Notes: a model not told the origin generated them from the sequence alone. A stretch of 64,000 nt of DNA from Methanocella sp. (GCA_050261115.1 JBLNCY010000006.1:1-64000), one strand, 5' to 3'; shown: positions 1,042-63,145, numbered from the stretch's first letter. Made by a program: numbers and translations.

Positions 1042-1187
1042 AAACAGTTGCCCAGCCAACAATAAAACCAGCCTCAATCACTCAGCTCCCTTCGCATGGA
1101 ACTAACAAACACCCAAACCTACACCGCCACCATCCTACGGATGCTGAGTCTATATATAAGGGAGGGGCCCTCGGCAAAGCAGAAGAC
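1042..1187 (+). repeat. dispersed intergenic element copy 1 (long form; core 1131-1187)
   Basis: Core CATCCTACGGATGCTGAGTCTATATATAAGGGAGGGGCCCTCGGCAAAGCAGAAGAC; upstream ~90 bp aligns with 54119-54209. Confidence 0.85.
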
Positions 1188-1266
1188 TTTCCTCAATCCA
1201 AACAAAACCGACCTCAACCTGCGAACGTTAATATCCCAGATTACTTCAAGCTTATTGGTGCAAGAC

Positions 1267-2106
1267 GTGTTCAAAAGTGCAGGTTTAGTTGCTCGCTTTG
1301 ACCAGAAACAGGCGCTTCGATTCACAGAAGACCTCACGACGTTTCTGGCAAAAAAGGGCTTACAGGTCTACATAGAGGACTCCTTAAAGGACAAAGTAGA
1401 CTGCAGCGTAGAGTTCATCCCACTCACAGAAATGAAAACCGACTTCATCATAACAATCGGCGGAGACGGCACAATCCTGCGAGCAGCCCTAAACATCCCC
1501 AAACCTGACACGCCACTCCTAGCCGTCAACATGGGAGTACGGGGATTCCTCACCGAAGTCGAACCACAAGACACCTACCAAGCCATCGAACGCATCCTAA
1601 AAGGCGACTTCCGAGTCGAAAAATCCACCAAAATGGCCATAACCGCAGGCAAACAACACCTCCCCGACGCCTTAAACGACGTCGTCATATCAACCGGGGA
1701 ACCATCCAAAATCCTCTACAGCGAAATCTGCAAAGACGGCAAACCCATCCTCAAATGCCAAGCAGACGGCATCATCATGGGCACCCAAACCGGCTCCACA
1801 GGATACTCACTCTCCGCAGGCGGACCCGTTCTTGACAGCGACGTAGACGCCTTCGTCTTAACCCCAATCTGCTCCCTAACCGTATTCCACGCACTTGTCC
1901 TACCCACAACCGCCGCCATAACCTTCAACGTCCTACGCCCCGAAAAAATGCTGATACAAATCGACGGCAACTACCGCAAAACCATAGACACCGACAAACT
2001 CACCATAACCGTAACAAAATCCCAAAACGTAACCTCATTCATCCGATTCGAATCCAACTTTTACGATCGACTCCGCAACCGGCTACTCTTCAAAGGAACA
2101 GAATAA
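1267..2106 (+). CDS. nadK: NAD kinase
   Basis: GGDGT, ND and DG..TQTGSTGYSLSAGG motifs; start moved to GTG 1267 because the ORF-track N-terminus (1096-1266) runs through the dispersed repeat. Confidence 0.93.
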   Translation: MFKSAGLVARFDQKQALRFTEDLTTFLAKKGLQVYIEDSLKDKVDCSVEFIPLTEMKTDFIITIGGDGTILRAALNIPKPDTPLLAVNMGVRGFLTEVEPQDTYQAIERILKGDFRVEKSTKMAITAGKQHLPDALNDVVISTGEPSKILYSEICKDGKPILKCQADGIIMGTQTGSTGYSLSAGGPVLDSDVDAFVLTPICSLTVFHALVLPTTAAITFNVLRPEKMLIQIDGNYRKTIDTDKLTITVTKSQNVTSFIRFESNFYDRLRNRLLFKGTE

Positions 2107-2107
2107 A

Positions 2108-2629
2108 ATGAGCAACAACCCCAAAAGAGTCACCGTACTTGACACCTCAGCTTTTCTTGCGGGCTATGATCCTTTTGCATCAGCCGATGAACAGGTTACT
2201 ACACCCAAGGTTGAGCAGGAAATCCTTCGCAACAGCATGATAAAACTACGGTTCCAGACAGCAGTTGAAAGCGGCAAAGTCAAAATCAAAACACCCAACC
2301 AAGACATAACCGCCAAAGCGCAAGCCACCAAAGCCGGCGACGCATGCAAACTCTCAGAGACAGACATGCAACTCCTCTCATTAGCAGCAGAACTCAAAGA
2401 ACAAGGTTACACCCCCAAAATCGTAACCGACGACTATTCAATCCAAAACGTCGCCAAACAAATAGGCATAGAAACCACCGCCCTAGCCACCTACGGCATC
2501 AAACGGCAGCTGGAATGGATACGCTACTGCCCCGCATGCTACAAACAGTACCCCTCAGACGCCAAATTCAAAGAATGCCAAGTCTGCGGCACCGAACTGA
2601 AACGCAAACCAAAACGCCAACCAACCTAG
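2108..2629 (+). CDS. nob1: Nob1-like PIN endonuclease with C-terminal Zn ribbon
   Basis: VLDTSAF, LSETD, TDDYSIQNVA and CPAC/CQVCG motifs. Confidence 0.92.
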   Translation: MSNNPKRVTVLDTSAFLAGYDPFASADEQVTTPKVEQEILRNSMIKLRFQTAVESGKVKIKTPNQDITAKAQATKAGDACKLSETDMQLLSLAAELKEQGYTPKIVTDDYSIQNVAKQIGIETTALATYGIKRQLEWIRYCPACYKQYPSDAKFKECQVCGTELKRKPKRQPT

Positions 2630-4437
2630 AATAGCAACAGTAAAAGAACGAGAAGCAAGCCTTCGATACCAAACACTGCGGGCGCGGCTTTTTTGGCTTT
2701 GACTATGGCTTTGTCGACCAGTATCGAGATAGAGTTTAGGCGCTCTTCCCCTATCACGCGCACTTTTGGAACCACAAACTCTACGCACCCCGACTTTGCA
2801 GCGTCCAAGGTTTGGGCGGCTTTCTTTGCAGCTTCTAGAATGTATTTGATTAGCAGGTTGTGGTCCATGGCTTCGCCTACTGGATGGTAACCGCGTCGCC
2901 CCGTTACCAAGGCACTTACTGCATGAGTATCGGTAGTAAACACTTCACACTCATCAAACCCTGCATCGGTCAAAGCATCCAAAATTTTCTCTCGCAGATG
3001 CGGCACCATGTTATTACCGTCAATAACCACATAAGCAGTCTTTTGCGCCTCAACCTCTACCGCAATCGCAGTTATGCCGCCTGCGCCCATACCCATCTTC
3101 TCTGAAAACTCAACAGGATAAACAGTTGCCGAGCCAACCTTAAACGGCTTAGCCTCAAACGCTACGGCTTTTTTGAGGCAACCAATCGCCGCCCGCTTAA
3201 GCTCATCCATATGCTCAGACATATCCGCTGAATCGTCCGCCAAAGCATTATGCGCATTAACCGCCATAGCATGCTTAAGCCCAACCCGCCTAGCCTCTTC
3301 AGCAACTATGCGGCCCAGTTCTTGGGGAAGGTCCTCGGTTGTTTTAGGCGCTATCGAAAAAGACAACAAAGCCGTGTCACCAAAGACTTGGCAGGAAGCG
3401 ATGGCGTCGCCTTGGGTGGAACGAACGAATGGTGAAGCCAAGGATTGAGCGGCAGCGAGGTTAGCTTGTTTTAGGACTTCGGCTACGATTTTTCGGTTTT
3501 GCGCTTGAGATGCTAAGTCAAGCTCATGACCCAAAATCCCCAGCGGCGTGCAGGCGTCACAGCCGTATTCTTTTTCGAAGTCATGTTTTAGCATGGAGGG
3601 AAGTAGGCTGCTGCCTATGTTCTTGAAGGGACCCGGATGCACCAGCGGCATGATGAAGGCTGCTTTGGGCTTTGCTGCGTCGAATTTTATGAAGCTAACA
3701 GAAATGTCTGCGTCTTGGCCTACCTCTTCAAGATGCTTCTCTAAGGGCGCGTTGGCGTCTGTTACCCAGTTAAGTATGAAAGCCCGAAAAAAAGACATCG
3801 CAGGCAACCCATAGGATGATTTGCCTAGCTGATCGATAGATCGCAAAAACAAGTAAACCGCGGCGTAGGCGATTATAGGGGTTAAGATGGCATAGGGGAG
3901 CACCTGTGGAATGATCGAAAATGAGGATGCTGACCAAAAAACCAAGAACACAGCCACACAGAGGAGGGGTTGGAGCAGCGCCGAGGCTAGCTGGCGCCAC
4001 TTTGATCTGTAGGAAGTAGCGGATAATACAATGATGCGTAATGTCACAACCGCCCCGTATCCGATTAGGGCAAGTTTTATCCACAATATACCGCCGAATA
4101 GAAACCCGAAAACGGCACCCAATGCAGCAAACGCTAGCCACAGAAGCCAGCAGTAGAAGGACATGGCAGATGTTCTGCGCACGGTAAAGATGGGATCGTT
4201 TCTGAGTAGGGCTTTGCTTAGGATCAGGTCTGTTGTGAAGGTTACTGTGAATAGGGTAAGCCCTAGTAGGAGGCTGTTTATGCTGGGAAAGAGGGCATAT
4301 GCACTTAGGGTTATGCCTATGGTGGTGAGGGCGATGTTGCCAAGGAGCGATTTTTTGAAGGATGGTAAGAAGAAGAGTGAGGAGTAGTGTTTTTTGGCTT
4401 GATCCATTGCGTGGTTTAGGGAGCCTTCGGTGGGCAT
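2626..4437 (-). CDS. DUF2070-family archaeal membrane protein
   Basis: N-terminal multi-TM region, VHPGPF, GHELD, DGNN and TTDTH motifs, C-terminal TM. Confidence 0.85.
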   Translation of the reverse strand: MPTEGSLNHAMDQAKKHYSSLFFLPSFKKSLLGNIALTTIGITLSAYALFPSINSLLLGLTLFTVTFTTDLILSKALLRNDPIFTVRRTSAMSFYCWLLWLAFAALGAVFGFLFGGILWIKLALIGYGAVVTLRIIVLSATSYRSKWRQLASALLQPLLCVAVFLVFWSASSFSIIPQVLPYAILTPIIAYAAVYLFLRSIDQLGKSSYGLPAMSFFRAFILNWVTDANAPLEKHLEEVGQDADISVSFIKFDAAKPKAAFIMPLVHPGPFKNIGSSLLPSMLKHDFEKEYGCDACTPLGILGHELDLASQAQNRKIVAEVLKQANLAAAQSLASPFVRSTQGDAIASCQVFGDTALLSFSIAPKTTEDLPQELGRIVAEEARRVGLKHAMAVNAHNALADDSADMSEHMDELKRAAIGCLKKAVAFEAKPFKVGSATVYPVEFSEKMGMGAGGITAIAVEVEAQKTAYVVIDGNNMVPHLREKILDALTDAGFDECEVFTTDTHAVSALVTGRRGYHPVGEAMDHNLLIKYILEAAKKAAQTLDAAKSGCVEFVVPKVRVIGEERLNSISILVDKAIVKAKKAAPAVFGIEGLLLVLLLLLF

Positions 4438-4997: not shown

Positions 4998-5168
4998 TTA
5001 GAGGAAGATTTTAGCTACAACAGAGACCACAATAAGAGTCACTGCCATGACGATAAGTAGTTCTGGCCGAACCTTAACGCCCTCAGTTTCCTCCTCAAAG
5101 AAGCGGAGCAAACCTGCACTCCCCGCCGGCATTGGACCAGAATCACGTTTCTTTTTTCGCATACCCAT
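4998..5168 (-). CDS. secG: preprotein translocase subunit Sec61beta
   Basis: AGLLRFFEEE..GVKVRPE followed by single C-terminal TM; ATG at 5168 or 5162. Confidence 0.9.
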   Translation of the reverse strand: MGMRKKKRDSGPMPAGSAGLLRFFEEETEGVKVRPELLIVMAVTLIVVSVVAKIFL

Positions 5169-5266
5169 AAAGGTCAAATCCCACTTGTGTTGTAGCAATA
5201 TTTTCTCTTGACCTAATTAATGTTACGCCGGGCTGATTCTCATTCTGCTTTCCTGATAGGGGATGC

Positions 5267-5325
5267 GTCTGCTGCTCTGCCGACCTACCCCCCCCTTATA
5301 CATAGAACCAACCACAGGTTCAACC
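5267..5325 (-). repeat. dispersed intergenic element copy 2
   Basis: Minus strand GGTTGAACCTGTGGTTGGTTCTATGTATAAGGGGGGGGTAGGTCGGCAGAGCAGCAGAC. Confidence 0.8.
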
Positions 5326-5444: not shown

Positions 5445-5569
5445 GCCGGGGTGGCGGAGTGGTTATCGCGCCAGCCTCGAGATCATATCGAAAGGCGGCC
5501 AGAATAAAAATGGCGGGATAGCTGGTGGGCTTCGTGCTCGCAGGGGTTCGAATCCCTTCCCCGGCGCCA
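5445..5569 (+). tRNA. tRNA-Ser(CGA) with 38-nt intron at 37/38 (5482-5519), CCA encoded
   Basis: Acceptor GCCGGGG/CCCCGGC, discriminator G, anticodon arm CCAGC-CT-CGA-G|A-GCTGG, long variable arm, GGTTCGAATCC; bulge-helix-bulge CUCG/CGGG with AGA and AUA bulges. Confidence 0.95.
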
Positions 5570-6166: not shown

Positions 6167-6491
6167 TTGGCTAACCTCTATTACAGTTATGGCATTCTAA
6201 TTTAACGTTTTATTTTCCTTTTTATCCTGTTGCTGCGGATTGCTTAGGTAATAAAGCGTTAGATACAATCCTCCTCCACAAGAATGCGACCCAAGAATCA
6301 TGCGACCACTCATGTCATCTTATCACAGAATCCATGTCCGCTTTCTTCTATTACTTAAAATAGGGATAGCCTTGACACATATTTTTCTGAAATCAAAGGT
6401 TTGGTCTTTAGAATACAAATTTTGGTAGACTAAATCAAAGGTAGATACAGAGATAAGTATACAAAAAAAGAAGGGAAAGTCTTGTTTCCCT

Positions 6492-9143
6492 TTAGGGTTT
6501 TTTGAGCATCATAAATGCCAGCATCGCCAGCACTATGACAATCAAGACCACGATTGCTATGGTTGCAGGAACAAAGTACAGGTCTGCTGCTGAGGGTTGC
6601 TGTGTTGGTTGGGATGTTGCTGGTTCGGGTGCGGGCATTGCATAGAAGCTTGATCGCGAGGAGGAGCCGTAGTAAGAGTTGCTGCCTTCAAAGGTTGCGA
6701 TTACGGTGTATAGTCCGTCGATGTCGGGTGCCCAGGCGTAGCTGAACATGCCGCTTGAGTCTGTGGTTGTGGTACCGATTGTGCGGTAGTTGCCGTTAGC
6801 GTCGATTACATTAAGTGTGACGGTTACGCCGGTGACGTCGGTTGGTTTGGCTTTTTGCATGTAGACGTATTCCATCCATGCTGCTTGGCTCTCGTCAGAG
6901 ACTGCGGGGACACCGTTGGGGAAGCGGGCCGCCTGCTCATTTTGTTTGGTGCCTGCTGCGATGTCGGTTACTGTGCCGCGTATTACGATGGGTGTGCCCA
7001 CGGTTGTTGCGATGTCTGGTGCTGTTACGGTTAGGGCGCTTGGGCCTTTGCCTAGAGAGTAGACTTTCATGTCGTAAGCGTTGAGGTAGGTTATTTGTCC
7101 GTCTGCGATTGGGAAGCCCCAGTCGCCAAAGTTGCCGACTGCTGCCCAGCTCATTAAGGTAAAGATTTCTTCGCCGGTAGTTGCGTTGAGGGCACGTATT
7201 TTTTCGTCTCGGTATAGTGGTGTGTTGGGTGAGTGCTCGTTGCTATAGACGTAGACTTTGTCGTCGCAGATTGCTGCAATAAAGGTTGGATAGAGACCCC
7301 AGGAGGTTTCAGTTCCGCTGTTTGTGCTATTACCCGGTCCGCCGCCACCATAGGACCAAACAAGTTCGCCAGTTTTGGTGTCGTAGGCGAAGATTTCACC
7401 GCCATAGCCGCCTACGTAGAGTTTTCCGTATGCTACATAGCCGATTTGGGCGACTCCGCCGCTGCCGATGGTTGGGTAATAGTTGAATGGTTTTGCGTAA
7501 CTGACTGGCCCCCAGACTTGGTTTCCGTTGTCTAGGTTAAAGCCGTACCATTGCATGGTTTCTTTGGTGCTTACAAAGAACATGCGGTTTATTGGGTCAA
7601 CGGTGCCTAGCTGCATTGTGACGTTGCCTTCGGGTACTTGTATGTCTTTGGACCAGAGTAGCCGTCCTCTGGAGCTTTCTTCGAGGCTGACTGCCCATAC
7701 AGTTCCATAGACCGCTGTGTTACCTGCTGCTGCGCCACCCCAGGTGGGTTGCCCAAAGCTTGATCTCATATTTCCATAGCCGAGGAGCAAATCGTCGTTA
7801 ATTGCCCAGCCTATGCCTGCGCCTGATGTAGGTAAGGTTGGCAGCGTTACGTTCCACGAATAGGATTGTCGCTGTTGTGTGTTAAACACTTGGTTGACTG
7901 GTCGATATCCGTTGCTTGTTAATGCGTTTAGTGGTCCGTTGCTTACGACGTTGGTGAAGTTCCAGAGTGCTAGCCATTTGTTTGCGAGGTTGATTTGGTA
8001 TATTAGTGGTTCGCCGCTGGGTCCGAAACTCATTGTTCCGGCGGGGACATTGGTTATGTTGAAAACCCAGGTGCCGTCTATTGGGTCATACATGCTCCAT
8101 GTTGTAGCTCCGCTTATGGTTTGGGTTGCGATTAGGTATGCTATTGCGCCGTGCTGGTTGGGTGAGTCAAAATTCACGATCGCACCAAACGTGGGGTTTA
8201 CTGCGTAGTTTTGTCGCCAGATTTCTTCGCCTGTTCGAAGGTCAACACAGATGTAGCCGCCGCCTGCGCCGTTGTTGCTGTGGGGTAATCCGTAGAATAA
8301 CCGTCCGCTTATGATGATTGGACTGTTAAATTTGGTTTCGTATGAGAGGCCTGTGTAGTAAGATGTACCGGTGATTCCAGTCTGGGCTGAGGGCGAGTTT
8401 GGTTCTTGGAAGTCATTGTTTCCTCCTACGATGCCCCCTAAGGTGATTTCTTTGCTCCACATGACGTGTGCGCTATCTGGGCCTGTACCGTCAGGTTGAT
8501 AGCGTACTGATCCAAAGCTGTAGGCTGCACCCATCGGGTAGAGGTAGTTTGAGCCGATTGTGTACCAGTTTGAATTTTGGCCTTCAATTGGTCTTGTCCA
8601 GTATTCGGTGGGCAGGGGTGTGAAGGTTCCGCCAGAAACTGGTTCTTCTTGGACTGTCAGAGTTGTTGTTGCGGTGCTGGGTAGGTAGGTGTCGTTTACA
8701 AATGCAGAGTTGGGGTTGTGTTCATAGGCGGTGTATTTTTGTCCGGGGAAGGTAAAGTTGAATGTGTAGGTGCCGACTTGTGTGGGGGTGAATGTTGTGT
8801 ATGCTGATGAGGTAGTGTCGGTGACTGTTTCCCATGTGACGGTTTCGGTTTTTCCGTCTGGGGCTGTAATTACGCATTTGAAGTTATGGAAGCGGATGTT
8901 GTTGGTTACTAGAGCGCCGTCTGGGATTTTGTCAAGCCAGACTACCAAGAGGCATTGTTGACCTACGCCCGCAGGGTTTGGGGAGACATTAACGAAGGCA
9001 TAGGTAGGTATGTCCCAACCAGGGTCATGTGCGGTTGCGGCTGGTATTGAGGTTAGCGTTACAGCGATGCTCAGTAGCAGTACTGCAATGATTAGGGTTG
9101 CGCCTGTTTTTTTAGAACAAGTTTTATAGTCTAAAATTCTCAA
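6492..9143 (-). CDS. membrane-anchored PQQ-like beta-propeller surface protein (paralog 1)
   Basis: Signal-like N-terminus, repeated D..TGE..W blades, LPTEYWTRPI and RFPNGVPAVSDES motifs, C-terminal TM + KKP. Confidence 0.85.
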   Translation of the reverse strand: MRILDYKTCSKKTGATLIIAVLLLSIAVTLTSIPAATAHDPGWDIPTYAFVNVSPNPAGVGQQCLLVVWLDKIPDGALVTNNIRFHNFKCVITAPDGKTETVTWETVTDTTSSAYTTFTPTQVGTYTFNFTFPGQKYTAYEHNPNSAFVNDTYLPSTATTTLTVQEEPVSGGTFTPLPTEYWTRPIEGQNSNWYTIGSNYLYPMGAAYSFGSVRYQPDGTGPDSAHVMWSKEITLGGIVGGNNDFQEPNSPSAQTGITGTSYYTGLSYETKFNSPIIISGRLFYGLPHSNNGAGGGYICVDLRTGEEIWRQNYAVNPTFGAIVNFDSPNQHGAIAYLIATQTISGATTWSMYDPIDGTWVFNITNVPAGTMSFGPSGEPLIYQINLANKWLALWNFTNVVSNGPLNALTSNGYRPVNQVFNTQQRQSYSWNVTLPTLPTSGAGIGWAINDDLLLGYGNMRSSFGQPTWGGAAAGNTAVYGTVWAVSLEESSRGRLLWSKDIQVPEGNVTMQLGTVDPINRMFFVSTKETMQWYGFNLDNGNQVWGPVSYAKPFNYYPTIGSGGVAQIGYVAYGKLYVGGYGGEIFAYDTKTGELVWSYGGGGPGNSTNSGTETSWGLYPTFIAAICDDKVYVYSNEHSPNTPLYRDEKIRALNATTGEEIFTLMSWAAVGNFGDWGFPIADGQITYLNAYDMKVYSLGKGPSALTVTAPDIATTVGTPIVIRGTVTDIAAGTKQNEQAARFPNGVPAVSDESQAAWMEYVYMQKAKPTDVTGVTVTLNVIDANGNYRTIGTTTTDSSGMFSYAWAPDIDGLYTVIATFEGSNSYYGSSSRSSFYAMPAPEPATSQPTQQPSAADLYFVPATIAIVVLIVIVLAMLAFMMLKKP

Positions 9144-11911: not shown

Positions 11912-12253
11912 CTATGTTAACGCTTTCACTGCTTCCTCGACTGTGGGGTAGATTTGGAAGATGCGGTTTAACCCCGATATTTCAAAGACTTCCATAACAT
12001 ATGGCTTAACGTTGCAGAGCACCATCTTGCCGCCTGCACGCGACAAGCCCTTAGATGCCGTTAACAGTACACGTAGTCCTGCACTGGCAAGGTACTCCGT
12101 TTGGCTAAAGTCACATGCAATTTTTTTTGTGCCCTCAGACACCAGACGGTTTAATTCTACCTCAACTTGACTTGCGGTGTAGGCGTCAAACCTTCGTAGG
12201 ATACCAACAATTTTTGCGTCGCCAACAGTTTTAACTTCAATACTGCTCATCAC
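11912..12253 (-). CDS. STAS-domain anti-sigma-factor antagonist (RsbV/SpoIIAA-like)
   Basis: DFSQTEYLASAGLRVLL (phospho-Ser position retained), VFEISGL..IF.I. Confidence 0.92.
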   Translation of the reverse strand: MMSSIEVKTVGDAKIVGILRRFDAYTASQVEVELNRLVSEGTKKIACDFSQTEYLASAGLRVLLTASKGLSRAGGKMVLCNVKPYVMEVFEISGLNRIFQIYPTVEEAVKALT

Positions 12254-12259
12254 AAAACC

Positions 12260-12691
12260 TCATTTTAGGATTTTAGTCATCGTTAACTCGTTTTCCATAC
12301 CACGGGAGGCGTATTTAACGGTTTGCATGTAGCGTTTCATAAAGAAAATCCCCAAGCCCCCGACCTTGCGGTCCTCTAAGGCGGCATCTACGTTGGGATT
12401 CTGCACCTGTTGGGGGTCAAAGGGGATGCCGCTATCTCTTAGCTGCACAGTGAACTCTTTGGGAGCAGTTAACTTACAGCGTATAGTGATTTGTCCGCCA
12501 GATTGTCCTGTGTAGGCATGCTCAATTATGTTGGTTAAGGCTTCATCTACAGCCAATTGTACGTCAAATATGTCCTTGTCGATGGCGCCAAGCTGCCGCA
12601 TTATTTTTGCTAAGAAGGCGCTTGCTACTTCGAGATTTCTAAGGTCACTGTCCATTTTTAGCTCTGACCAACCATCGTTACTCATACACAC
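12260..12691 (-). CDS. RsbW/SpoIIAB-like serine kinase (GHKL ATPase fold)
   Basis: LAVDEALTNIIEHAY N-box, DSG..FDP, GGLGIFFM. Confidence 0.92.
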   Translation of the reverse strand: MCMSNDGWSELKMDSDLRNLEVASAFLAKIMRQLGAIDKDIFDVQLAVDEALTNIIEHAYTGQSGGQITIRCKLTAPKEFTVQLRDSGIPFDPQQVQNPNVDAALEDRKVGGLGIFFMKRYMQTVKYASRGMENELTMTKILK

Positions 12692-12700
12692 TTCGCCTCT

Positions 12701-14839
12701 CTAAGTTACCTTCAATATCATTAAGGTGATGTCGTCAAATTGCGGTTGACCGCCAGCATGTGCTGTCACGGCGTCTTGGATTCTGCGCAGAATCTCTTTG
12801 GCGGATAAGCCTCGATTTTCCTCAACAATGGCAAGGAGCCGCTGCTGACCGAATTGTTCCTCTGCAGAGTTGATGGCTTCGGTGACGCCGTCAGTGTAGA
12901 GGATGACTATGTCGCCGCTTTCCAGCTGCAACTCTGCCTCTTCTAACTTGACACCATCAATTATGCCCAAGGCGATTCCTTCCGCTTTAAGCAGCGCCGT
13001 GCCGCCTGCTGGATGCTTTAGCAGTGGCGGGTTATGACCTGCGTTAACATATCGAAGGCGCCGTTTTTTAGCATCCAATATAGCGTAGAAGAGGGTGACA
13101 AACATGCCTGATTTTGCGTCTGCACATATCAAGTCGTTGGCTTTTTCGATGGCGTCGCCAACTTTTGGGTTGCCTGTAGCGCTTGCACGTACCAATGTGC
13201 GGGACAGGGCCATGAAGAGGGCGGCGGGTACACCTTTGCCAGATACGTCAGCTATGGTTAGGCCCCATTGATCGGCGGATATGGGGATGAAGTCGTAAAA
13301 GTCTCCACCGACTTCTTTTGCGGGAATGTTTGAGGCAGCAATCTCAAAGCCAGGTATGTCGGGTTCCTTTTCGGGGAGGAAGCTTTGTTGGATACCTTTG
13401 GCGATTTCAAGTTCCTTTATTAGGCGCTCTTTTTCTGCGGTTGTGCGTTTTAGTTCTGCCATTTGATCCTGCAAGTCTGTAGTCATCTTGTTGAAGGACA
13501 CAGCTAAGGCCTCAAGCTCGTCACCGGAGTTGACTTTGACTCGGGAATTTAGGTCGCCTGCGCCGATTGCCTTTGCACCCCGCATCAGACTCATAATGGG
13601 GTTAACTATCATTCTGGATAGCAAGTAGGAGACTATGGCAACAAGAATTATGATGACTACAAACATGGTGATGAAGTAGTTTCGAATGGTTTGGGTTTGG
13701 GCATCAACGTATGCACCCGCCATGTCTACGGTACTTGCTATTTTGCCCTGCGTAACTAATGCGGGCTCTATAATGGTACTTACAGGTAAAACTATGGCTA
13801 GACTCCAGCCAGTAACCCCAAGCGGCGCATACGCAACATAGTTGTCGCTACCACTGATGGTACACATGGTTACGCCTGTTTTGCCCGCCTTCATGTCTCG
13901 GGCTATGCCGCCAAAAGTGGTATTTTCAAGAGACAGGTCGGAGCTCTCGATAAACTCGTTTGACGGCTCCTCGTCTCCGCCTACAGAATGCGTGATCATG
14001 TTGCCTTTATTGTCTAGGATGAAGGTATATCCGCCTAGTTGCTCTATCTGTGTGTTAACTACATTGCGATTTAGAGAAGCTATAGTTACATCTAAACCGA
14101 TAACCCAATAGAACCCATGTGTCGAGGAACGTATGGCAGTGGAGCAAGTTATCATTAAACCGTAGCCGCTAGCGTCAAGGTAGGGTTCTGACCAATAAAC
14201 AGAGCCTTCCCTGGCGTTCTTATACCAAGCTCGTTCTCGGGGATCAAAAGAGGAGCCGATGCCGTCGGTCCAAGGGTAAATCTGGGCAACACCCGATTTA
14301 GTCGTAACATACGCCTGCGTTATCAGGGGATCGCTGTTGTAGATTGCGGCAAAGGCGTCTTGTATGTTACTGGTGTAGTTTAATTCTGCTTCTACATCCC
14401 TAAAGTTCACGTTTGGGGCTAGGTAGTAGACTGATGTGGCTTTGGGGTTTGGGGGGGTTTGGTTTTGAGCAAACAATCCCTCTTGGGGTACAGATGAGCG
14501 CGCTAAGAGTTGAGAAGCTAAGTACCGGATGGTCATTAGTTCGGATTCTACCTGTTTAAAGACGGCGTTACTTATCTCCGCCTGGTCTACCGCTAGACTA
14601 TGCAGGTAATGCTCGGCTTGGCTCTCTAATGCGACGGTGCTGTCGTTTACTGCGCTGTCGCCTAAAGCCCGGCTGCTCTGCATTGAATAAGCATTCAACT
14701 CGTTTATACCGTTAAAGGCTATGAATCCAAGCAGTATTAGTGAAATAAGCGATATGCCTAGAAAAGCGGTCAGCACCTTCGTTTTTATGCTTAATCCACG
14801 GAGCCTCGTGTGCTTAGTCATAGCTTGCTTTCCTAGCAA
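12701..14839 (-). CDS. membrane sensor phosphatase: TM-Cache-TM-HAMP-SpoIIE/PP2C (RsbU-like)
   Basis: FDPRERAWY and WSEPYLDA Cache motifs, DELEALAVSFNKM HAMP, VGGDFYDF, ADVSGKG, NAGHNPP, YTDGVTEA, DDITL. Confidence 0.93.
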   Translation of the reverse strand: MLGKQAMTKHTRLRGLSIKTKVLTAFLGISLISLILLGFIAFNGINELNAYSMQSSRALGDSAVNDSTVALESQAEHYLHSLAVDQAEISNAVFKQVESELMTIRYLASQLLARSSVPQEGLFAQNQTPPNPKATSVYYLAPNVNFRDVEAELNYTSNIQDAFAAIYNSDPLITQAYVTTKSGVAQIYPWTDGIGSSFDPRERAWYKNAREGSVYWSEPYLDASGYGLMITCSTAIRSSTHGFYWVIGLDVTIASLNRNVVNTQIEQLGGYTFILDNKGNMITHSVGGDEEPSNEFIESSDLSLENTTFGGIARDMKAGKTGVTMCTISGSDNYVAYAPLGVTGWSLAIVLPVSTIIEPALVTQGKIASTVDMAGAYVDAQTQTIRNYFITMFVVIIILVAIVSYLLSRMIVNPIMSLMRGAKAIGAGDLNSRVKVNSGDELEALAVSFNKMTTDLQDQMAELKRTTAEKERLIKELEIAKGIQQSFLPEKEPDIPGFEIAASNIPAKEVGGDFYDFIPISADQWGLTIADVSGKGVPAALFMALSRTLVRASATGNPKVGDAIEKANDLICADAKSGMFVTLFYAILDAKKRRLRYVNAGHNPPLLKHPAGGTALLKAEGIALGIIDGVKLEEAELQLESGDIVILYTDGVTEAINSAEEQFGQQRLLAIVEENRGLSAKEILRRIQDAVTAHAGGQPQFDDITLMILKVT

Positions 14840-25125: not shown

Positions 25126-25172
25126 GCATCCCGCCCCATAGGTATGCTTTCCTCATAATTTTTTCAAGCGAA

Positions 25173-25231
25173 GGTTCAACCTGTGGTTGACTCTATATAT
25201 AAGGGAGGGGATTCCTCGGCAGAGCAACAGA
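25173..25231 (+). repeat. dispersed intergenic element copy 3
   Basis: GGTTCAACCTGTGGTTGACTCTATATATAAGGGAGGGGATTCCTCGGCAGAGCAACAGA, between convergent genes. Confidence 0.85.
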
Positions 25232-25359
25232 ACAGTTTTGTGGCCAACGCAACATGCCTTTTGCGAAAACCAAGCCGAGCTTCGGTTATGCGGCTGAAAA
25301 AAGCCCCCAGATTGACAGAGGCAAACTCGTTTCTTATGAACAAAAAAGGAAAATGGCGC

Positions 25360-25602
25360 TTAAGACAGCCATTTCAAAGGAATATCTTGGAAGGTGCCAT
25401 CGGGCAGAGTTCTGCGTATAGTGATAGGCAGAATGTTTGCTTCGAGCTCGCTTACTGCTATGTCGATTGGGTTTGTGTTTTCTTCTGCATCAACCAAGAT
25501 TGGGGCTCCCATCGAGATTTGCAATGCGCGTGCACCGACGATTCTTGCTTTCTCGAAGCGAGTAATTTTTGGTGGTCCAACATTCACTGTTTTTTCTATC
25601 AT
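25360..25602 (-). CDS. rpoK: RNA polymerase subunit Rpo6/K
   Basis: [21 protein letters not shown] signature. Confidence 0.97.
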
Positions 25603-33896: not shown

Positions 33897-34307
33897 TTAA
33901 GCTTCTGCAGCAGCTTCTTCTTGCTTAGCAGCGGGTTTGGCTAATGGAGCGGCTCCAGCGGGTCTTTCCACGATTTTTAAGTTAATCTGGACGATCTCGT
34001 CTGTAATGATGTCGCCGCGGACGACTTTACGTTTGCGTTGGCCCTTCCTTTTGGGTTTGAAGCCTGTGCCGCCGCTTAGAACTACTGCTCTTCGGACACC
34101 GCCATGGACGTTTGATCTCATGGGGATGCCGTCTTTGTCAGATCCGCCTGTTACTTGGATTTTGTGAGCTGGTAAGTCAACTATTGCGCCGTCTAGGGTT
34201 TCGCCTATTTTTTTGCCGATGAATGGGCCTGCGCGTGCCTCTTCGAGCTCTACTACTTTGGATGCTCCCGATTGTGGATCGGAAACTATGACTTTGAACT
34301 TTGCCAT
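33897..34307 (-). CDS. rps6e: 30S ribosomal protein S6e
   Basis: TGGSDKDGIPM, G.RKRK.VRG. Confidence 0.96.
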   Translation of the reverse strand: MAKFKVIVSDPQSGASKVVELEEARAGPFIGKKIGETLDGAIVDLPAHKIQVTGGSDKDGIPMRSNVHGGVRRAVVLSGGTGFKPKRKGQRKRKVVRGDIITDEIVQINLKIVERPAGAAPLAKPAAKQEEAAAEA

Positions 34308-34464: not shown

Positions 34465-34523
34465 TCTGTTGCTTTGCCATAGACTCCCCTCCCTTATATA
34501 TAGAACCAACCTTAGGTTGAACT
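34465..34523 (-). repeat. dispersed intergenic element copy 4
   Basis: Minus strand AGTTCAACCTAAGGTTGGTTCTATATATAAGGGAGGGGAGTCTATGGCAAAGCAACAGA. Confidence 0.85.
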
Positions 34524-54118: not shown

Positions 54119-54266
54119 AAAACAGCTGTGCAGCCAACAACCAACCCAGCAGGCATCCACTCAGCGCCCTCCGTATGGAACTAACAAACACCCAAACCCA
54201 CACCACCTCCATCCTGCGGTTGCTGAGTCTATATACAGGGGAGGGATTCTCGGCAAAGCAACAGAC
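54119..54266 (+). repeat. dispersed intergenic element copy 5 (long form; core 54210-54266)
   Basis: Core CATCCTGCGGTTGCTGAGTCTATATACAGGGGAGGGATTCTCGGCAAAGCAACAGAC; shares ATGGAACTAACAAACACCCAAACC and upstream sequence with copy 1. Confidence 0.85.
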
Positions 54267-54273
54267 GTCGACC

Positions 54274-55209
54274 CTAACAGAGGGCCCGAACGAACTCCTC
54301 TACAGCGCCAATCGTCTTCAAGTTCATAACTGCCCGCGTATTCTGAGTAGTCTTGAAATCTTTAAGCATCCAGAAAACATGCTCCCTAACCTCCTGCGCA
54401 GAACCCCGACGCTCATACTTGCGGTATAACTCGATGAACCGTAGAATCTGTTTTTTTATCCCCCGGTTATCAATCTTGGCTTTTTGTGGGTCAAATATCC
54501 ATGGGCGATCTCTTGAGCCTCGGCCCACCATCACCAAGTCGCAGCCCGTCTTCTCCAGCAACGCAAGCCCCTGCGCATAGTTTGTGACGTCTCCGTTTGC
54601 AATCACGGGAATGCAAAGTTTTTCTTTGATCTGCTTGATGCTGGTCCAGTTTACTTTCCCCGCAAGTTTCTGGTCAGCGGTTCGTCCATGCACACAGAGA
54701 GCAGCTATACCAGCGCTTTCTAGGCATTGGGCAATTCGCACACCGATGATTTTCTGGTTCTCCAACCCAATGCGCATTTTCACCGTGACTGGCCTCTCAG
54801 TAGCCGCCACCATCTTACGCACAAGACTTTCTAACCTAGCAGGGTCTGCAAGCAAGTAGGCGCCGTAGCCTCGCTCAAGAAACTCTTTTTCGCTACAACC
54901 AACGTTGAGGTCGATTATGTCGGCATACTCCTCCACAAGCTTCACACTGTTAACTAGGTCCTCTTCGTTGTTGCCGATTAACTGGACGCTTACAGGGCGC
55001 TCACAGTCCTGTATGTTTAGGATTTCTTTTACGTCGCTTGGTTTTCTGTTTTTGAGGATATCGGTTTCTATCATCTGCGTATAGATTAGCGCCGCATGGT
55101 TCTCTTTGCAGAGCATTCGAAAAGCGGTGCAGTTGACAGCAGCCATTGGTGCAAGAACAAACTGGCCACGGAGAGCTATGGATCCGATGTTCATGAGATT
55201 CTCTTCCAC
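54274..55209 (-). CDS. dus: tRNA-dihydrouridine synthase family protein
   Basis: LAPMA, VQL.G, DLNVGC, GAYLL, VTVKMR.G, VHGRT, ANGDV, VMVGRG. Confidence 0.9.
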   Translation of the reverse strand: MEENLMNIGSIALRGQFVLAPMAAVNCTAFRMLCKENHAALIYTQMIETDILKNRKPSDVKEILNIQDCERPVSVQLIGNNEEDLVNSVKLVEEYADIIDLNVGCSEKEFLERGYGAYLLADPARLESLVRKMVAATERPVTVKMRIGLENQKIIGVRIAQCLESAGIAALCVHGRTADQKLAGKVNWTSIKQIKEKLCIPVIANGDVTNYAQGLALLEKTGCDLVMVGRGSRDRPWIFDPQKAKIDNRGIKKQILRFIELYRKYERRGSAQEVREHVFWMLKDFKTTQNTRAVMNLKTIGAVEEFVRALC

Positions 55210-58873: not shown

Positions 58874-60496
58874 ATGAGTAGGCAAGAGAAACTCCAAAAA
58901 GCCATCGAGGCAGCCATCATTGCCGGCTACCAACTAAACAGCGAAGCTTTTGAGTTCCTTACCCAAAATGTGGACACAATGGACCCCGAAGCCGTAATGA
59001 ATCTAGCATTAATGCAGTTATCTGACTTAGAGGATAAGCCCATCTTCATCGACCGAGATAGACTCGTGTCAGTTATTCATCAATTAGCAGTTGCAGAAAT
59101 GCAACAAGCCTTAGAAAACCAAACCGAAACACAACCAACCAATGAACCCAATCCAGTTAACATATTCCCGGAAGCACAAAGCTACACCGAGCCAACCATA
59201 AACGCGGTCGATGCCAGCGACTACTTTTACCCCTACGCCAAAGACATATCCTCCGAGCTTATAATCATAGAAGACCCCACAGGTAAACTCACCTCAAACG
59301 GAACAATACAAGAATACACAGCGCTCTTCCAAGACCGCTTCAGACGGGTCGAAAAAATACTCCGCAACCGCATGGATGTCCGCTCAGCCACACCGCTAGC
59401 CGAAGCGGTCAAATCCCAACCGAAATCAAAACTCAAAGTCATCTGCATGCTAACAGAAAAACGCGACAGCAAAAACAACACCATCCTCTCAGTTGAAGAC
59501 CCAAACAGCAGCGCCACCATCGTCATCCCCCACAAGGCACCTGAAGAAGTAAAAAAGAAGGCACTAACACTATTGCCCGACACCGTCTTTTGTGCGGCAG
59601 TCATCAAAACCCGAACCAATCTGCTCATGGCAGAAGACATTATCCTCCCAGAAGTCGGCCGAAAAGCACCTAAACGGGCCCAAGAACCTGTCTATGCAGT
59701 GCTGACTTCAGATGTACATGTAGGTAGCAATAAATTTACCAAAGATGCATTTCGCCGTTTCATTCTTTGGCTAAGAGGTAAGTATGGCACCCCACAAATG
59801 CGTGAAGTCGCAGGCCGCGTCAAGTACCTCTTAATCGCAGGTGACATCGTCGACGGCGTAGGTATTTATCCCGGTCAACAAACAGAACTCACCATACGTG
59901 ATGTACGCAAGCAATACAACTTTGCCATCAAATATCTAGAAAAAATACCCAGCTACATAGAAATCGTGCTCTCACCAGGCAACCACGACGCCGCGCGTAA
60001 ATCCCAACCTCAGCCAGCCATCCCAGAAGGATACCTAACCGCAATCAAAGATAAACCAAACATTCACTCTGTTGGCAGCCCCTGCTACCTAAGCATACAT
60101 GGCGTTGAAGTCTTGATGTATCACGGTGTAAGCCTAAATGACATCATAGGGGTAGTGCCGGGGATGGATAATGATCATCCTGAGAAGTCCATGAGGCTAC
60201 TTATGCAGGATCGCCACTTGGCACCTATGTATGGCGGTAAAACCATGCTTTCGCCTGAGAACCGCGACTATATGGTTGTCGAGCGAGTCCCCGACATCTT
60301 TCATGCGGGTCACATTCACGTTTTAGGCTACTGTAACTATCGGGGGGTACTTGTAGTTAATTCGGGGGGCTGGCAACTGCAGACTGAGTATATGGAAAAG
60401 TTAGGGCTGATGCCTACGCCTGGGAAGGTTCCTGTAATCAACTTGCAAACAATGGAGATTACGGTTCTGGATTTCCTAAACCCCATTGAGAGTTAG
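58874..60496 (+). CDS. polD1: DNA polymerase D small subunit DP1
   Basis: OB fold then SDVHVGS, AGDIVDG.GIYPGQ, PGNHD, YHG, RHLAP.YG, GHIH. Confidence 0.95.
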   Translation: MSRQEKLQKAIEAAIIAGYQLNSEAFEFLTQNVDTMDPEAVMNLALMQLSDLEDKPIFIDRDRLVSVIHQLAVAEMQQALENQTETQPTNEPNPVNIFPEAQSYTEPTINAVDASDYFYPYAKDISSELIIIEDPTGKLTSNGTIQEYTALFQDRFRRVEKILRNRMDVRSATPLAEAVKSQPKSKLKVICMLTEKRDSKNNTILSVEDPNSSATIVIPHKAPEEVKKKALTLLPDTVFCAAVIKTRTNLLMAEDIILPEVGRKAPKRAQEPVYAVLTSDVHVGSNKFTKDAFRRFILWLRGKYGTPQMREVAGRVKYLLIAGDIVDGVGIYPGQQTELTIRDVRKQYNFAIKYLEKIPSYIEIVLSPGNHDAARKSQPQPAIPEGYLTAIKDKPNIHSVGSPCYLSIHGVEVLMYHGVSLNDIIGVVPGMDNDHPEKSMRLLMQDRHLAPMYGGKTMLSPENRDYMVVERVPDIFHAGHIHVLGYCNYRGVLVVNSGGWQLQTEYMEKLGLMPTPGKVPVINLQTMEITVLDFLNPIES

Positions 60497-61716
60497 GTTT
60501 TGTGGAGGCTTTTTGGCTGATAATTTAGCAGAGGGCCAAAACGTGCGTCTGTACCAAATACATCTTTTATTAAGCCACGGCTAATTTCAAGACGAATCTT
60601 CTTAGTTCGCCCATACCGGCCCATGCTAACAACTTTGGCGTTGACAAGCCCCATAGAATCAAGCTCGTTTACAAGCGTTCCGAGGCGTCGCTGGGTAAGT
60701 AATCCTGCGCCCATTTCGCCACAGAGTTCATTGTATATGTCATAGATTTCTCCTGTGGATGCACTGTGCTTGTTGAGGTGATATACGCTTAGCAGGACAA
60801 GTTTTGAGTGCAACGTCAAGTTTTTTAGAGCTTCGATTACACGGTTGTGTTCTATGTGTTTTTCAGCTTGGCGAACGTGTTCTTCTGTGATGGTGGTTGC
60901 ACCGTTCCGTTCGGCTACTTCACCGGCTACTCTGAGCAGGTCTAGAGCTCTTCTGGCATCGCCATGCTCTGCTGCGGCCAAGGCTGCGGATATGCTAAGT
61001 GCAGACTCAGTCAAAGCACCATCCATAAATGCAAGCTTTGATCGTTCAAACAAAATATTTCGGAGTTCGCTTGCATCGTAGGGTCGGAATACGAGTTCTT
61101 CTTCACTTAAGGAGCTGAATACACGGGGGTCTAGGAATTCTTTTAGGCGGAGGTCGTTTGATATGCCGATGATTGAGACTTTGCTTTTGTTGAGTGTTTC
61201 GTTGATGCGGGTGAGTTCGTACATGAAGGCGTCGCCTCGGTCTTTTATGAGGGCATCTACCTCGTCTAGTACGATGATGAATATAATGTAAGATTGGTCT
61301 AGGCCTGAGCGGAATCTATCGAAAACTTCGCCGACTGACAACCCAGTAAAGGGAATGGATAGCCCAACACTTTGGCTAAGGGCGGCAAAAACGCGGTATT
61401 CTGAACCGGTCATGCGGCAGTTTATGTAACAGAATTTTATTTGGGCCCCATACTCTTTGGCTTTTGATTCGAGGTGGCTAAGGACGTATTTGGCTACTGC
61501 GGTTTTTCCTGTGCCGGTTTTGCCGTAGATGAATATGTTTGAGCAGCGGGCATTTCTTAGTACAGGGGCTACTGTGGATCCTAGGAGTCGGATTTGTTCT
61601 TCTCGGTGGGGGAGCTTTTCTGGTAGATAGTCATGTCTTAGGACTTCGCGGTCTTTGAAGAGTCTTGGGCCTTTTACGAAATTGTCAAACACATCATCAA
61701 GTACAGAGTTTCCCAT
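60493..61716 (-). CDS. cdc6: Orc1/Cdc6 replication initiator
   Basis: LPHREEQI, YGKTGTGKT, VLDEVD, GDARRALDLLR, GRYGRT wing. Confidence 0.97.
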   Translation of the reverse strand: MGNSVLDDVFDNFVKGPRLFKDREVLRHDYLPEKLPHREEQIRLLGSTVAPVLRNARCSNIFIYGKTGTGKTAVAKYVLSHLESKAKEYGAQIKFCYINCRMTGSEYRVFAALSQSVGLSIPFTGLSVGEVFDRFRSGLDQSYIIFIIVLDEVDALIKDRGDAFMYELTRINETLNKSKVSIIGISNDLRLKEFLDPRVFSSLSEEELVFRPYDASELRNILFERSKLAFMDGALTESALSISAALAAAEHGDARRALDLLRVAGEVAERNGATTITEEHVRQAEKHIEHNRVIEALKNLTLHSKLVLLSVYHLNKHSASTGEIYDIYNELCGEMGAGLLTQRRLGTLVNELDSMGLVNAKVVSMGRYGRTKKIRLEISRGLIKDVFGTDARFGPLLNYQPKSLHKT

Positions 61717-61747
61717 TGTTTGCCCACCCTATTTTTTTTCAGAGGTA

Positions 61748-62340
61748 CAACCGTTATTTCGAGTGGAACAGATAAAGGCTACAGTACAAAAAAATGGTTT
61801 TGAACAACAACATTCCTAAAAGAAGACAAAAACAGGCAGAAACAACCTATCAACCCAAGGATAGACTCACCCGTTGATTTCTACTGGAAAAATCAACTAA
61901 CTTTACACTAACCCATATTATAGTATAACATAATAATATACTCTGAGTTGTAAATTAGCTTTGAATATATTAATGATTGTTGTCCAAAAAAATAGATAGA
62001 CTCTCAGAAATTATTTTTCGACCGCTTCTCAACTTCTTTTTTCCCCTAAAACTCTCGAGAGGAAAAAGAGGGGTGCCTCTCTGATCTGAATTCCATGGAA
62101 GAAAGCTTGTAAGCTGTCCCTTTGCTTCAATATTTTGCCATGGCTTGCTTTGCTCCTTACCAAAGTTCGCCTAGTGACCTCTTGATTGCCAGGTTTGGGT
62201 GGCTTAGGGGTTCACAAAACTGTGAATACATGTGAAATAGCAATAAATCTGTAGCTTTATCAAGCTTCTTTTTCGGAGATTTACTTGTTTTCTGTCTGTT
62301 AACAGTGAATGTGGCACCCCTTGGCTTCTACTGGAGAACT
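61748..62340. other. probable replication origin (oriC) with ORB boxes and AT-rich segment
   Basis: Minus-strand GTTCCACTCGAAATAACGG (61751-61769), TTCCAGTAGAAATCAACGGGTG (61867-61888 approx.), CTCCAGTAGAAGCCAAGGGGTG (62315-62336); plus-strand CTCGAGAGGAAAAAGAGGGGTG (62054-62075); AT-rich 61911-62000; directly upstream of cdc6. Confidence 0.85.
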
Positions 62341-62530
62341 CGATTTAAGCTGGAAAGATAAATCTTTTAACCGTTTGTTTTTCTGTGAAGCTTGTAATTC
62401 TAAAAACAATTATAAAATAAGTTATTTACTGAAAATAAGCTTGAATTGGGCTTTTTATTTTGGCTGTTTTCACCATCACAGTTATATGCTGTGAAGCTGT
62501 AGAGTTGTGAACAACCTAGGTGTCTAATTA

Positions 62531-62962
62531 GTGCCGACTCGCAAAATGCGCGTGGAGCTCTTTGACAATGAGGGCAATCGGTATACCATTGCCTTTGAGG
62601 GTCAAGTGACCCGCGACAAAGCTCTACGCCTGCTTGATCTTGTTGAATTGCTAGGCGGCACACCGAATGAAACATCAAATATAACAAGTCCAGCAGTACC
62701 CAGTCCTCGTCAACTGTCTCGTTTTGAGAAGGTTCAAGCAGTAATTCAGAAGAATTTCCCCTTAATCTGGTTCTCATCCAAAGACATTCAGGCAGTCTAT
62801 GAGCAGGAATTCAAAGAACCTGTCAGCCTAAGCACCATATCCACCTACCTCTCCAGAATGGCCTCAAAAGGCATGCTTATGCGCACTGGCACCTCCAACA
62901 ACCTCAAGTACAAGACTGCCCCAAACATTCCAGCGACAATCAAGCAGCGTATAATAAAGTAG
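62531..62962 (+). CDS. origin-adjacent protein with small N-terminal domain and C-terminal winged helix
   Basis: KMRVELFD.EG.RYTI.FEG.VTRDK; FSSKDIQ..YE......LSTISTYLSRM..KG.L.R wHTH pattern. Confidence 0.8.
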   Translation: MPTRKMRVELFDNEGNRYTIAFEGQVTRDKALRLLDLVELLGGTPNETSNITSPAVPSPRQLSRFEKVQAVIQKNFPLIWFSSKDIQAVYEQEFKEPVSLSTISTYLSRMASKGMLMRTGTSNNLKYKTAPNIPATIKQRIIK

Positions 62963-62963
62963 C

Positions 62964-63009
62964 TTCACAAGCCCTTCACAACAGTTCACCACTGTTCACA
63001 GGGTTCACA
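62964..63009 (+). repeat. array of five TTCAC(A/C) direct repeats at about 10-bp period
   Basis: Starts at 62964, 62975, 62985, 62995, 63004. Confidence 0.8.
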
Positions 63010-63085
63010 ACATGCTTGTATTAGGTTGACGATTATTGGTAGCTGCCCATATTTTTTAGCATGCTATTTAGTTGAGTTGAGTTGC

Positions 63086-63145
63086 GTCTCTTGCTTTGCC
63101 AAGAGACCCCTCCTTATATATATAGAGTCAACCTCGGGTTGAACC
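63086..63145 (-). repeat. dispersed intergenic element copy 6
   Basis: Minus strand GGTTCAACCCGAGGTTGACTCTATATATATAAGGAGGGGTCTCTTGGCAAAGCAAGAGAC; upstream GGTATGCTTTC also found before copy 3. Confidence 0.85.

Follow-up and report, generated by a model that had tools for sequence, protein, structure and literature searches.

Archaeal promoters, as outlined in PMC7289017, have a TATA box of 7-8 bp, an adjacent B recognition element (BRE) and a T(A/G) initiator, and the same promoter layout is described for the primary transcriptome of T. onnurineus (PMC5316973). In halovirus HF2, intergenic repeats with an A/T-rich motif (class I, 58 bp; class II, 29 bp) are described as promoters on the basis of reporter assays, with sequence and position conserved among related genomes and with long counter-transcripts (PMC8707807). 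Here we analyzed a stretch of 64,000 nucleotides listed as Methanocella sp. (GCA_050261115.1, JBLNCY010000006.1, positions 1-64000; the whole stretch is hereafter called the window), in which an intergenic repeat occurs six times. In its conserved core of 45-50 nt, a TATA-like run is directly followed by a G-run, after which come a short spacer of variable sequence and GGCARAGCARMAGA. We regard it as moderately likely that this repeat is a lineage-specific, unusually invariant and directional archaeal promoter cassette, which would launch leaders as well as non-coding and antisense RNAs.

Several other systems are similar to the cassette in part. The Halobacterium rRNA operon has several near-identical promoters, roughly 100-150 bp apart, ahead of a highly expressed gene, and bacterial interspersed mosaic elements (BIMEs) and BOX elements are composed of modules in varying combinations. 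Repetitive extragenic palindromes (REPs) and MITEs (miniature inverted-repeat transposable elements) have been described in PMC3184786. When compared with an archaeal core promoter, the cassette likewise has an A/T-rich run (8-10 bp), keeps a fixed distance between this run and a pyrimidine-purine step that is invariant, and has a defined direction. On the other hand, it has no clearly visible A-rich BRE, has a near-invariant G-run after the TATA, and conserves ~14 nt around its presumed start across unrelated loci and across genomes, which is far more information than a normal archaeal promoter holds. Furthermore, half of its copies face no gene, and the other genes of the window lack the G-run. 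Like the Halobacterium tandem promoters, co-oriented cores stand ~150 nt apart before thermosome, GAPDH and 23S rRNA genes in CAWALK01, a metagenome-assembled genome (MAG) labelled 'uncultured archaeon'; the Halobacterium promoters are however limited to the rRNA leader, whereas the cassette is dispersed over dozens of loci, many of them without a downstream gene. The HF2 repeats were the closest documented case found and are a precedent for a promoter function, since they are also short and intergenic, lie in an archaeal replicon and have an A/T-rich motif. As described, they sit in a haloarchaeal virus, whereas the cassette is found in cellular Bathyarchaeia chromosomes and is known from sequence alone; the comparison is an analogy only. 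REPs and BIMEs, BOX elements and MITEs are dispersed, intergenic and multi-copy as the cassette is, but the cassette has no G+C-rich stem-loop, terminal inverted repeats or target duplication, and its conserved part is promoter-like. Literature searches on Bathyarchaeia promoters or TATA boxes, and on intergenic repeats or small RNAs, found nothing on the topic.

Core geometry and directionality

An earlier reading of the window (hereafter the original prediction) listed six intergenic copies of the repeat. All six were confirmed, all in intergenic positions, and the three-nucleotide palindrome spacers and the consensus written for them agreed with the window sequence. The copies are as follows:

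Copy 1, 1131..1187, + strand: core at 1144-1188, consisting of the TATA run, the G-run, CCCTC and GGCAAAGCAGAAGA.
Copy 2, 5267..5325, - strand: upstream module GTTGAACC-TGT-GGTTGG, pairing over 4 bp only.
Copy 3, 25173..25231, + strand: upstream module GTTCAACC-TGT-GGTTGA.
Copy 4, 34465..34523, - strand: upstream module GTTCAACC-TAA-GGTTGG.
Copy 5, 54210..54266, + strand: upstream module of the type seen in copy 1.
Copy 6, 63086..63145, - strand: upstream module GTTCAACC-CGA-GGTTGA, and a TATA run 2 nt longer than in the other copies.

Exactly six copies are present in the 64-kb window, their orientation alternates along it (+ - + - + -), and their abundance is far above chance. When the 19-nt TATA/G-run block was searched with up to 3 mismatches, 5 matches were found against 0.02 expected from 100 shuffles of the window; copy 6 escaped this search solely through a 2-nt TA insertion. 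GGCARAGCARMAGA with at most 1 mismatch gave 9 matches in the window against 0.31 expected, namely the six copies and one-mismatch matches at 21722, 36341 and 50783, which lack the rest of the element. A core profile (nhmmer) also matched the six copies, with E values from 7e-16 to 4e-10. Note that this recovery is partly circular, as the profile contained 44 cores, i.e., 38 related loci and the six window copies. Because the next best profile match had an E value of only 0.38, the window holds no additional weak copies.

The related copies were obtained by scanning species-representative genomes with a pattern that comprised the end of the TATA run, the G-run, a gap of 3-10 nt and GGCARAGCA, for which our own arithmetic gives ~10 chance matches in 596 Gb. 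The scan yielded 44 loci, 35 of which are in the single MAG CAWALK01, and three MAGs labelled Candidatus Bathyarchaeota have one locus each. Another locus (L025) lies at a contig edge (2.4 kb, Pirellulales bin) and has the appearance of a true copy. Five bacterial loci (L004, L005, L017, L028 and L029) lack the rest of the consensus and were treated as chance matches; only L004 among them gave a profile match, which was weak (E 7e-5). Counts of composition, motifs and context given below refer to 38 related loci, L025 excluded, and counts of spacing and pyrimidines refer to 45 copies, including the six window copies and L025. No scanned contig had five matches at the spacing of the window, indicating that the window's own genome is outside the scanned collection.

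In the window copies, the core has the alternating A/T run TCTATATATAA or a near variant, directly followed by the G-run GGGAGGGG, and a spacer of 5-7 nt that differs in every copy separates the G-run from GGCARAGCARMAGA. All six thus have the A/T-rich TATA box expected of an archaeal promoter (7-8 bp), in the form of TATATATA(A) or a near variant; a run of this type is likewise present in the related copies, where the search pattern fixed its last four bases and left the rest free. Counted from where the A/T run ends, GGCA begins after 15-16 nt in 35 of the 45 copies and after 13-17 nt in 42. A pyrimidine (C or T) stood directly 5' of GGCA in all 45, although this position was unconstrained (N) in the search pattern, so that an initiator-like pyrimidine-purine step lies at a set distance downstream of the TATA in this count. 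The 5-6 nt upstream of the TATA read GAATC, CAGTC, TATTC, GTTTC or GAGTC, with only TC constant by eye and no clear A-richness. By eye, the element has a sharp right end (…GCARMAGA) and a left end that varies with the class of upstream module. Conservation is limited to the blocks, and the spacer as well as the flanks on both sides differ among copies. The thermosome gene of the window and that of CAWALK01 showed 76.5% DNA identity over 1601 nt, indicating that the core is common to clearly different species. Since spacer and flanks differ while the core is shared by genomes with so low a thermosome identity, the conservation points to selection on the blocks rather than to recent copying.

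Besides this fixed spacing and the pyrimidine found in 45 of 45 copies, strand asymmetry, co-oriented arrays and one back-to-back copy argue for a directional promoter. On the element strand of the 38 loci, the A+C fraction was 0.41-0.51 over -500 to -50. In most of the interval +0 to +125 it was 0.61-0.67, with 0.52 for the +25 bin, and further out to ~+325 it was 0.52-0.63; the asymmetry begins exactly at the core. The window itself has many strongly A/C-rich 80-nt stretches in plus-strand genes and G/T-rich ones in minus-strand genes. At least one further forward TATA+G-run was present within 400 nt downstream in 18 of the 38 loci (20 motifs, eleven of them at +144 to +158). Only 2 reverse motifs were present in the same interval, and the 400 nt upstream contained no motif of either orientation. 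Among the secondary profile matches, 9 of 10 were co-oriented with the primary copy, and the tenth was in L012 (JAMDCQ01, ~1970-2038), a locus upstream of GAPDH. In L012, two cores stand back-to-back on one TATA, and arms made of the G-run and GGCAGAGCAACA are inverted on both sides of a TTATATAA centre. This locus looks as a two-way promoter would, and shows the G-run and GGCARAGCA as parts of the putative downstream side.

The same locus is also relevant to another explanation, that the element is an untranscribed site acting at the DNA level, where a nucleoid or boundary protein or a site-specific recombinase would recognize the G-run + GGCARAGCA arm by the A/T centre. The perfect inverted arms of L012 about an 8-bp A/T centre are like a recombinase core site, and the high information content over ~45 bp as well as the placement independent of gene orientation would agree with such a site. 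However, the two-armed form was found in only 1 of 39 element-bearing loci, and the downstream asymmetry and the co-oriented arrays ~150 nt apart are unexpected for a plain binding site. No linked recombinase gene was found in the window, nor any orientation bias along contigs or towards the candidate origin described below, and we consider this explanation very doubtful. The original prediction had proposed, as one of three candidates, a genome-wide site for a chromosome-organising protein; an oriented site of this kind gained no support, as the copies alternate in orientation and are unrelated to the candidate origin by cdc6.

Upstream modules and downstream sequence

The original prediction included a palindrome in the consensus of all copies, but this palindrome is not a universal feature. 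What precedes the TATA is a set of interchangeable modules, not one unit, and the palindrome is confined to one module class. The module GTTSAACC-N3-GGTTGA is present in copies 2, 3, 4 and 6 (4 of the 6 window copies), and 13 CAWALK01 copies have, by eye, GTTSAACC followed by GTTGA after a gap of 3-5 nt. Copies 1 and 5 have another, A/C-rich upstream module with 83% identity over 111 nt between them, and a short extension is shared by copies 3 and 6. The positions are as follows:

1042..1151 (approximate), + strand: A/C-rich upstream module of copy 1, ~110 nt, of the 'A/C-rich + GCTGAGTC' type and homologous to that of copy 5.
54120..54230 (approximate), + strand: A/C-rich upstream module of copy 5, ~110 nt, the partner of the copy 1 module.
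25162..25196, + strand, with its copy 6 partner at ~63122-63156, - strand: short upstream extension of copies 3 and 6, 35 nt, 86% identity.

CAWALK01 has at least two further upstream classes, one of which is conserved across ~170 nt and appears, by eye, to contain a divergent TATA-like motif.

Selection on symmetry had been proposed on the basis of a compensatory change in the palindrome of copy 1. This proposal is unsupported because the module of copy 1 is a different one, in which the palindrome ends 5 and not 2 nt from TCTATA (the distance is 5 nt in copies 1 and 5 and 2 nt in the others), so that non-homologous positions had been compared. In CAWALK01, the first half-site is by eye GTTGAAC in 10 of the 13 copies and GTTCAAC in 3 of 13; the half-site pair is therefore usually a direct, not an inverted, repeat. 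GTT-S-AAC is itself a 7-bp palindrome, a symmetry that would suit protein binding more than hairpin formation.

A structured RNA motif, in which a hairpin and the downstream sequence would act as RNA or single-stranded DNA, was considered in view of the perfect 6-bp arms in copies 3, 4 and 6 and the 5-bp palindrome in copy 1. However, the RNA fold z-scores of copies 1-6 (+0.83, -0.15, +0.26, -0.21, +1.19 and -2.06) gave no stability signal, as five of the six folds were no more stable than shuffled sequences (z from +1.19 to -0.21), copy 6 being at -2.06. Moreover, the palindrome is lost or weakened in copy 2 and, by eye, in 10 of the 13 related copies with the same module, and copies 1 and 5 carry a non-homologous module. 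Rfam gave nothing at E<=1, and the consensus fold of 18 downstream sequences had only -0.14 kcal/mol. A structured RNA is hardly credible on these grounds. Similarly, the conserved stable stem-loop that forms the repeat core of REPs and BIMEs was absent, the palindrome being present in one module class only.

Downstream of the core, the window copies have no common sequence past ~+15. In CAWALK01, units of ~190 nt were found, 18 of which were aligned; they contain conserved short boxes of the CAAACGC type and often a T-rich stretch, and are followed by the next core. The 18 aligned units gave no consensus RNA fold, the z-scores of single-sequence folds of the downstream modules were mostly between -1.3 and +0.8, and the G+U content of the units was 0.15-0.43. 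Copies 1 and 5 were also considered as possible downstream ends of such a unit. Copy 1 matched it at 61% over 147 nt (E 3e-6), a weak and composition-biased match in a tiny database, and copy 5 had only one short, weak match (72% over 47 nt, E 0.001).

The statement that the element belongs to no described family agreed with our searches. At both the gathering score and E<=1, Rfam matched only two tRNAs in the window, neither of them at a copy, and in 39 related loci it matched only the 23S rRNA (L014, 1040 nt downstream) and a divergent 5S rRNA (L024); ARAGORN found no tRNA in these 39 loci. Phage and plasmid collections gave no match to the element; for the phages, this included a distant-mode BLAST search with copy 3. 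A 55-aa open reading frame (ORF) after copy 3 (25254-25421) had no homologue in a protein search restricted to near-equal lengths.

Two candidate downstream products were rejected. A small ORF starting from the triplet before GCA, with the G-run as Shine-Dalgarno sequence, was discarded as, by eye, the triplet is TCG in 26 of the 45 copies; ATG or TTG was seen at this place in no copies but 4 and 6, whose ORFs would have 14 and 12 aa. A C/D-box small RNA (sRNA) was discarded as well, since no convincing C/D boxes were seen by eye in copies 2 and 4 and Rfam gave no match.

The modular structure is what would be expected of a mosaic non-autonomous repeat family (MITE-like, or BOX/BIME-like) in which the TATA is incidental or has secondarily become a promoter, and which would spread through transposition, recombination or gene conversion. 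The element is multi-copy and dispersed with an orientation to neighbouring genes that is close to random, its modules recombine around one core, with the same downstream family after two upstream classes, and the ~190-nt units are repeated with 70-87% identity in at least 18 places of CAWALK01. In addition, the thermosome gene of CAWALK01 is preceded by a ~440-nt array of cores that its ortholog in the window lacks, the proximal promoter region being conserved in both. Note that this comparison is not a clean empty site, as homology with L001 ends 59 nt before the start codon and the upstream neighbours differ. On the other hand, neither terminal inverted repeats nor target-site duplications were seen by eye at the six copies, and the ends are not mutual inverts. 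Identity is also uneven, with near-invariant short blocks beside a spacer that differs in every copy, suggesting selection over recent copying. GAPDH carries an upstream core in two MAGs despite diverged leaders between core and gene, no transposase is consistently near (one DDE transposase, 587 nt downstream at L020), and no match was found in phage or plasmid collections. Taken as an explanation of its own, a mosaic repeat appears rather unlikely; it overlaps with the promoter cassette, as a mobile cassette could carry a promoter. The REP/MITE-like element of the original prediction is thus retained as a possible route of spread, whereas the terminal inverted repeats and target duplications expected of it were not seen.

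Gene contexts and the proposed promoter function

The Pfam-supported annotation of the window agreed with the placement given earlier, i.e., between divergent (copies 1 and 2), convergent (3 and 6) and tandem genes (4 and 5):

Copy 1: between divergent eIF5A and NAD kinase genes, pointing at NAD kinase (probable start ~1260) and then a PIN-domain gene.
Copy 2: between divergent genes for Sec61beta (4998-5198, - strand) and an intron-containing tRNA (5445-5566, + strand), pointing at Sec61beta.
Copy 3: between convergent nucleoside deoxyribosyltransferase and rpoK genes, pointing at the rpoK 3' end, 128 nt off.
Copy 4: between tandem genes for Fae-Hps and rpS6e (33897-34307, - strand), 158 nt upstream of rpS6e.
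Copy 5: between tandem genes, with the L3 operon starting on one side (53824, - strand) and dus ending on the other (stop codon at 54274, - strand), running antisense into dus from 8 nt.
Copy 6: between a convergent 143-aa ORF (62531-62962, + strand) and a MarR-TrmB-like gene, pointing at the 3' end of the ORF, 124 nt off.

For copy 1, an intergenic position requires NAD kinase to start near 1260 and not at the ATG at 1096. The start near 1260 is likely, since in the long ORF the match to the Pfam NAD_kinase domain starts at residue 63. The tRNA gene at 5445-5566 (122 nt, presumably intron-containing) was detected by Rfam with 47.4 bits but not by ARAGORN. It is separated from copy 2 by 120 nt and is encoded on the other strand. 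The rpoK gene (25360-25602, - strand) is an 80-aa ORF that matches RNA_pol_Rpb6 directly downstream of the thermosome gene. It is below usual ORF length cut-offs, and counting it shrinks the gap around copy 3 from 370 to 128 nt. The 143-aa ORF has no Pfam family. By eye, NAD kinase, Sec61beta and rpS6e each have a further A/T-rich TATA-like stretch nearer the start codon, which for rpS6e is ~47 nt before the ATG.

In the related genomes, cores or arrays precede a number of Pfam-supported genes, among them two for thermosome subunits, GAPDH (in two MAGs), SUI1, CobD, ferredoxin and a member of the amino-acid-kinase family, and this placement favours a promoter. The core of L014, a locus of CAWALK01, is 1040 nt upstream of a 23S rRNA gene (3070-4028, + strand). 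No ORF of at least 50 aa begins within 600 nt downstream of this core, and the rRNA leader may for this reason hold an array of cores. In L024 of CAWALK01, a core was found 210 nt from a divergent 5S rRNA gene (1671-1790, - strand).

Second cores showed further features. At ~+30 to +45 after the primary core of L020 and L024, a second tandem core ends abruptly after its TATA run, which may reflect an insertion sequence that has inserted into the TATA; the DDE transposase ORF of L020 lies downstream. L001, L010, L011, L021 and L031 have a common mini-unit at ~+20 to +75, in which a second TATA+G-run is followed by GGTAGGTA direct repeats, and in L001 a short hairpin and a T6 run come after these repeats. 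The mini-unit resembles a separate, very short transcription unit. In the window, TTAAAATAGGGATAGCC at 6355 (+ strand) resembles the second-core motif of CAWALK01 and is invisible to the core profile; it sits between two minus-strand genes, pointing against both.

From the arrangement of the core and its neighbours, we infer transcription, its start position and the roles of the RNAs as follows. TBP would bind the alternating TATATATA(A) run, and the G-run directly after the TATA, together with the invariant GGCARAGCA, would mark the downstream side. Transcription would start within or beside GGCARAGCA, which begins 15-16 nt after the A/T run, so that the first 10-14 nt would be about the same in all predicted RNAs, with an A/C-rich stretch without consensus structure after them. 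The cassette would be a free-standing module that can be placed in any type of intergenic region. At copies 1, 2 and 4, the transcript would enter NAD kinase, Sec61beta and rpS6e, respectively, the cassette serving as a distal extra promoter with a leader. At copies 3, 5 and 6, the product would be either a short non-coding RNA or one that is antisense to the gene ahead at its 3' end, namely rpoK, dus and the 143-aa ORF, respectively (the distances to these 3' ends are +128, +8 and +124 nt). Exchangeable upstream sequences, such as GTTSAACC-N3-GGTTGA in copies 2, 3, 4 and 6, are candidate operators. The roughly 50% of copies that have no gene ahead of them are probably sources of short non-coding or antisense RNAs without structure.

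Several observations weigh against such a promoter. No A-rich BRE directly upstream of the TATA was evident by eye in the window and related copies, and the stretch that would need melting is G-rich. The scan fixed the TATA end, the G-run and GGCARAGCA, so that their conservation elsewhere is partly an effect of ascertainment. A co-directional gene is ahead of only 3 of the 6 window copies (1, 2 and 4), and copies 3, 5 and 6 face the 3' end of a convergent gene; likewise, a rough ORF-based call gave a co-directional next gene downstream in 16 and a convergent one in 22 of the 38 related loci. When two loci with a Pfam-supported gene after the array were corrected, these heuristic gene calls became 18 co-directional versus 20 convergent. 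For the other copies, the strand asymmetry was the only sign of a transcription unit in the direction of the core. Copy 5, L027 and L035 come within 8-18 nt of a convergent gene's stop codon. Finally, a TATA run followed by GGG was not seen as a general promoter feature (3 sense versus 4 antisense occurrences in the 90 nt upstream of 55 genes), indicating that the cassette, if a promoter, would be of a special class. A G-run after the TATA as a genome-wide promoter rule was rejected on the basis of these counts, the 39 loose TATA+GGG matches in the window also being without pattern.

The claim that the copies are not simply promoters of neighbouring genes holds, as only about half of them face a co-directional gene. 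The candidate of the original prediction that fits best is a promoter cassette for small non-coding RNAs, given the geometry of the core, the strand asymmetry and the roughly half of copies without a co-directional gene; its transcribed part stands as a prediction. A more specific proposal would be a dedicated promoter class of soil and sediment Bathyarchaeia that uses a downstream G-rich element (dBRE-like), perhaps with a specialised TFB or TBP paralogue, to control a regulon of dozens of unstructured A/C-rich sRNAs sharing a ~14-nt 5' tag. The tag and the repeated CAAACGC-type boxes would then act as a handle or sponge for an RNA-binding protein, or the RNAs as antisense regulators at the 3' ends of convergent genes. 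This proposal is speculative, and we think it distinctly improbable in its full form.

Candidate origin, other window features and significance

Three copies of a ~25-nt repeat are located at 61868-61894, 62315-62341 and 62053-62077 (two direct and one inverted, with 72-81% identity or complementarity). They lie in the gap 61717-62530 beside cdc6/orc1 (60493-61716, - strand), with copy 6 of the cassette ~750 nt off. These repeats look like origin-recognition boxes, and the gap is a candidate replication origin. In addition, the window encodes three large paralogous PQQ_2/BamB-like repeat proteins; the region comprises 6492-9143, 15132-17621 and 19714-22422 (all - strand) as well as 11912-14839 (- strand). 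They adjoin a cluster of SpoIIE phosphatase, HATPase_c_2 kinase and STAS genes, which we take to be a partner-switching module of a kind mainly familiar from bacteria.

The repeat is a real, lineage-wide, promoter-like cassette with modular flanks. To our knowledge, Bathyarchaeia are not yet in pure culture. With dozens of copies per genome, the near-invariant 45-nt cassette predicts exact 5' ends for metatranscriptomes, and it is a strong candidate promoter for future Bathyarchaeia genetic tools. If the cassette were only a duplicated strong housekeeping promoter, it would have annotation value and be otherwise ordinary. A further question posed by the cassette is whether archaeal promoters can have their direction set by a G-rich block that follows the TATA. 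If it is true that half of the copies make A/C-rich RNAs without a gene, or antisense RNAs, these would form a sizeable and uncharacterised RNA family.

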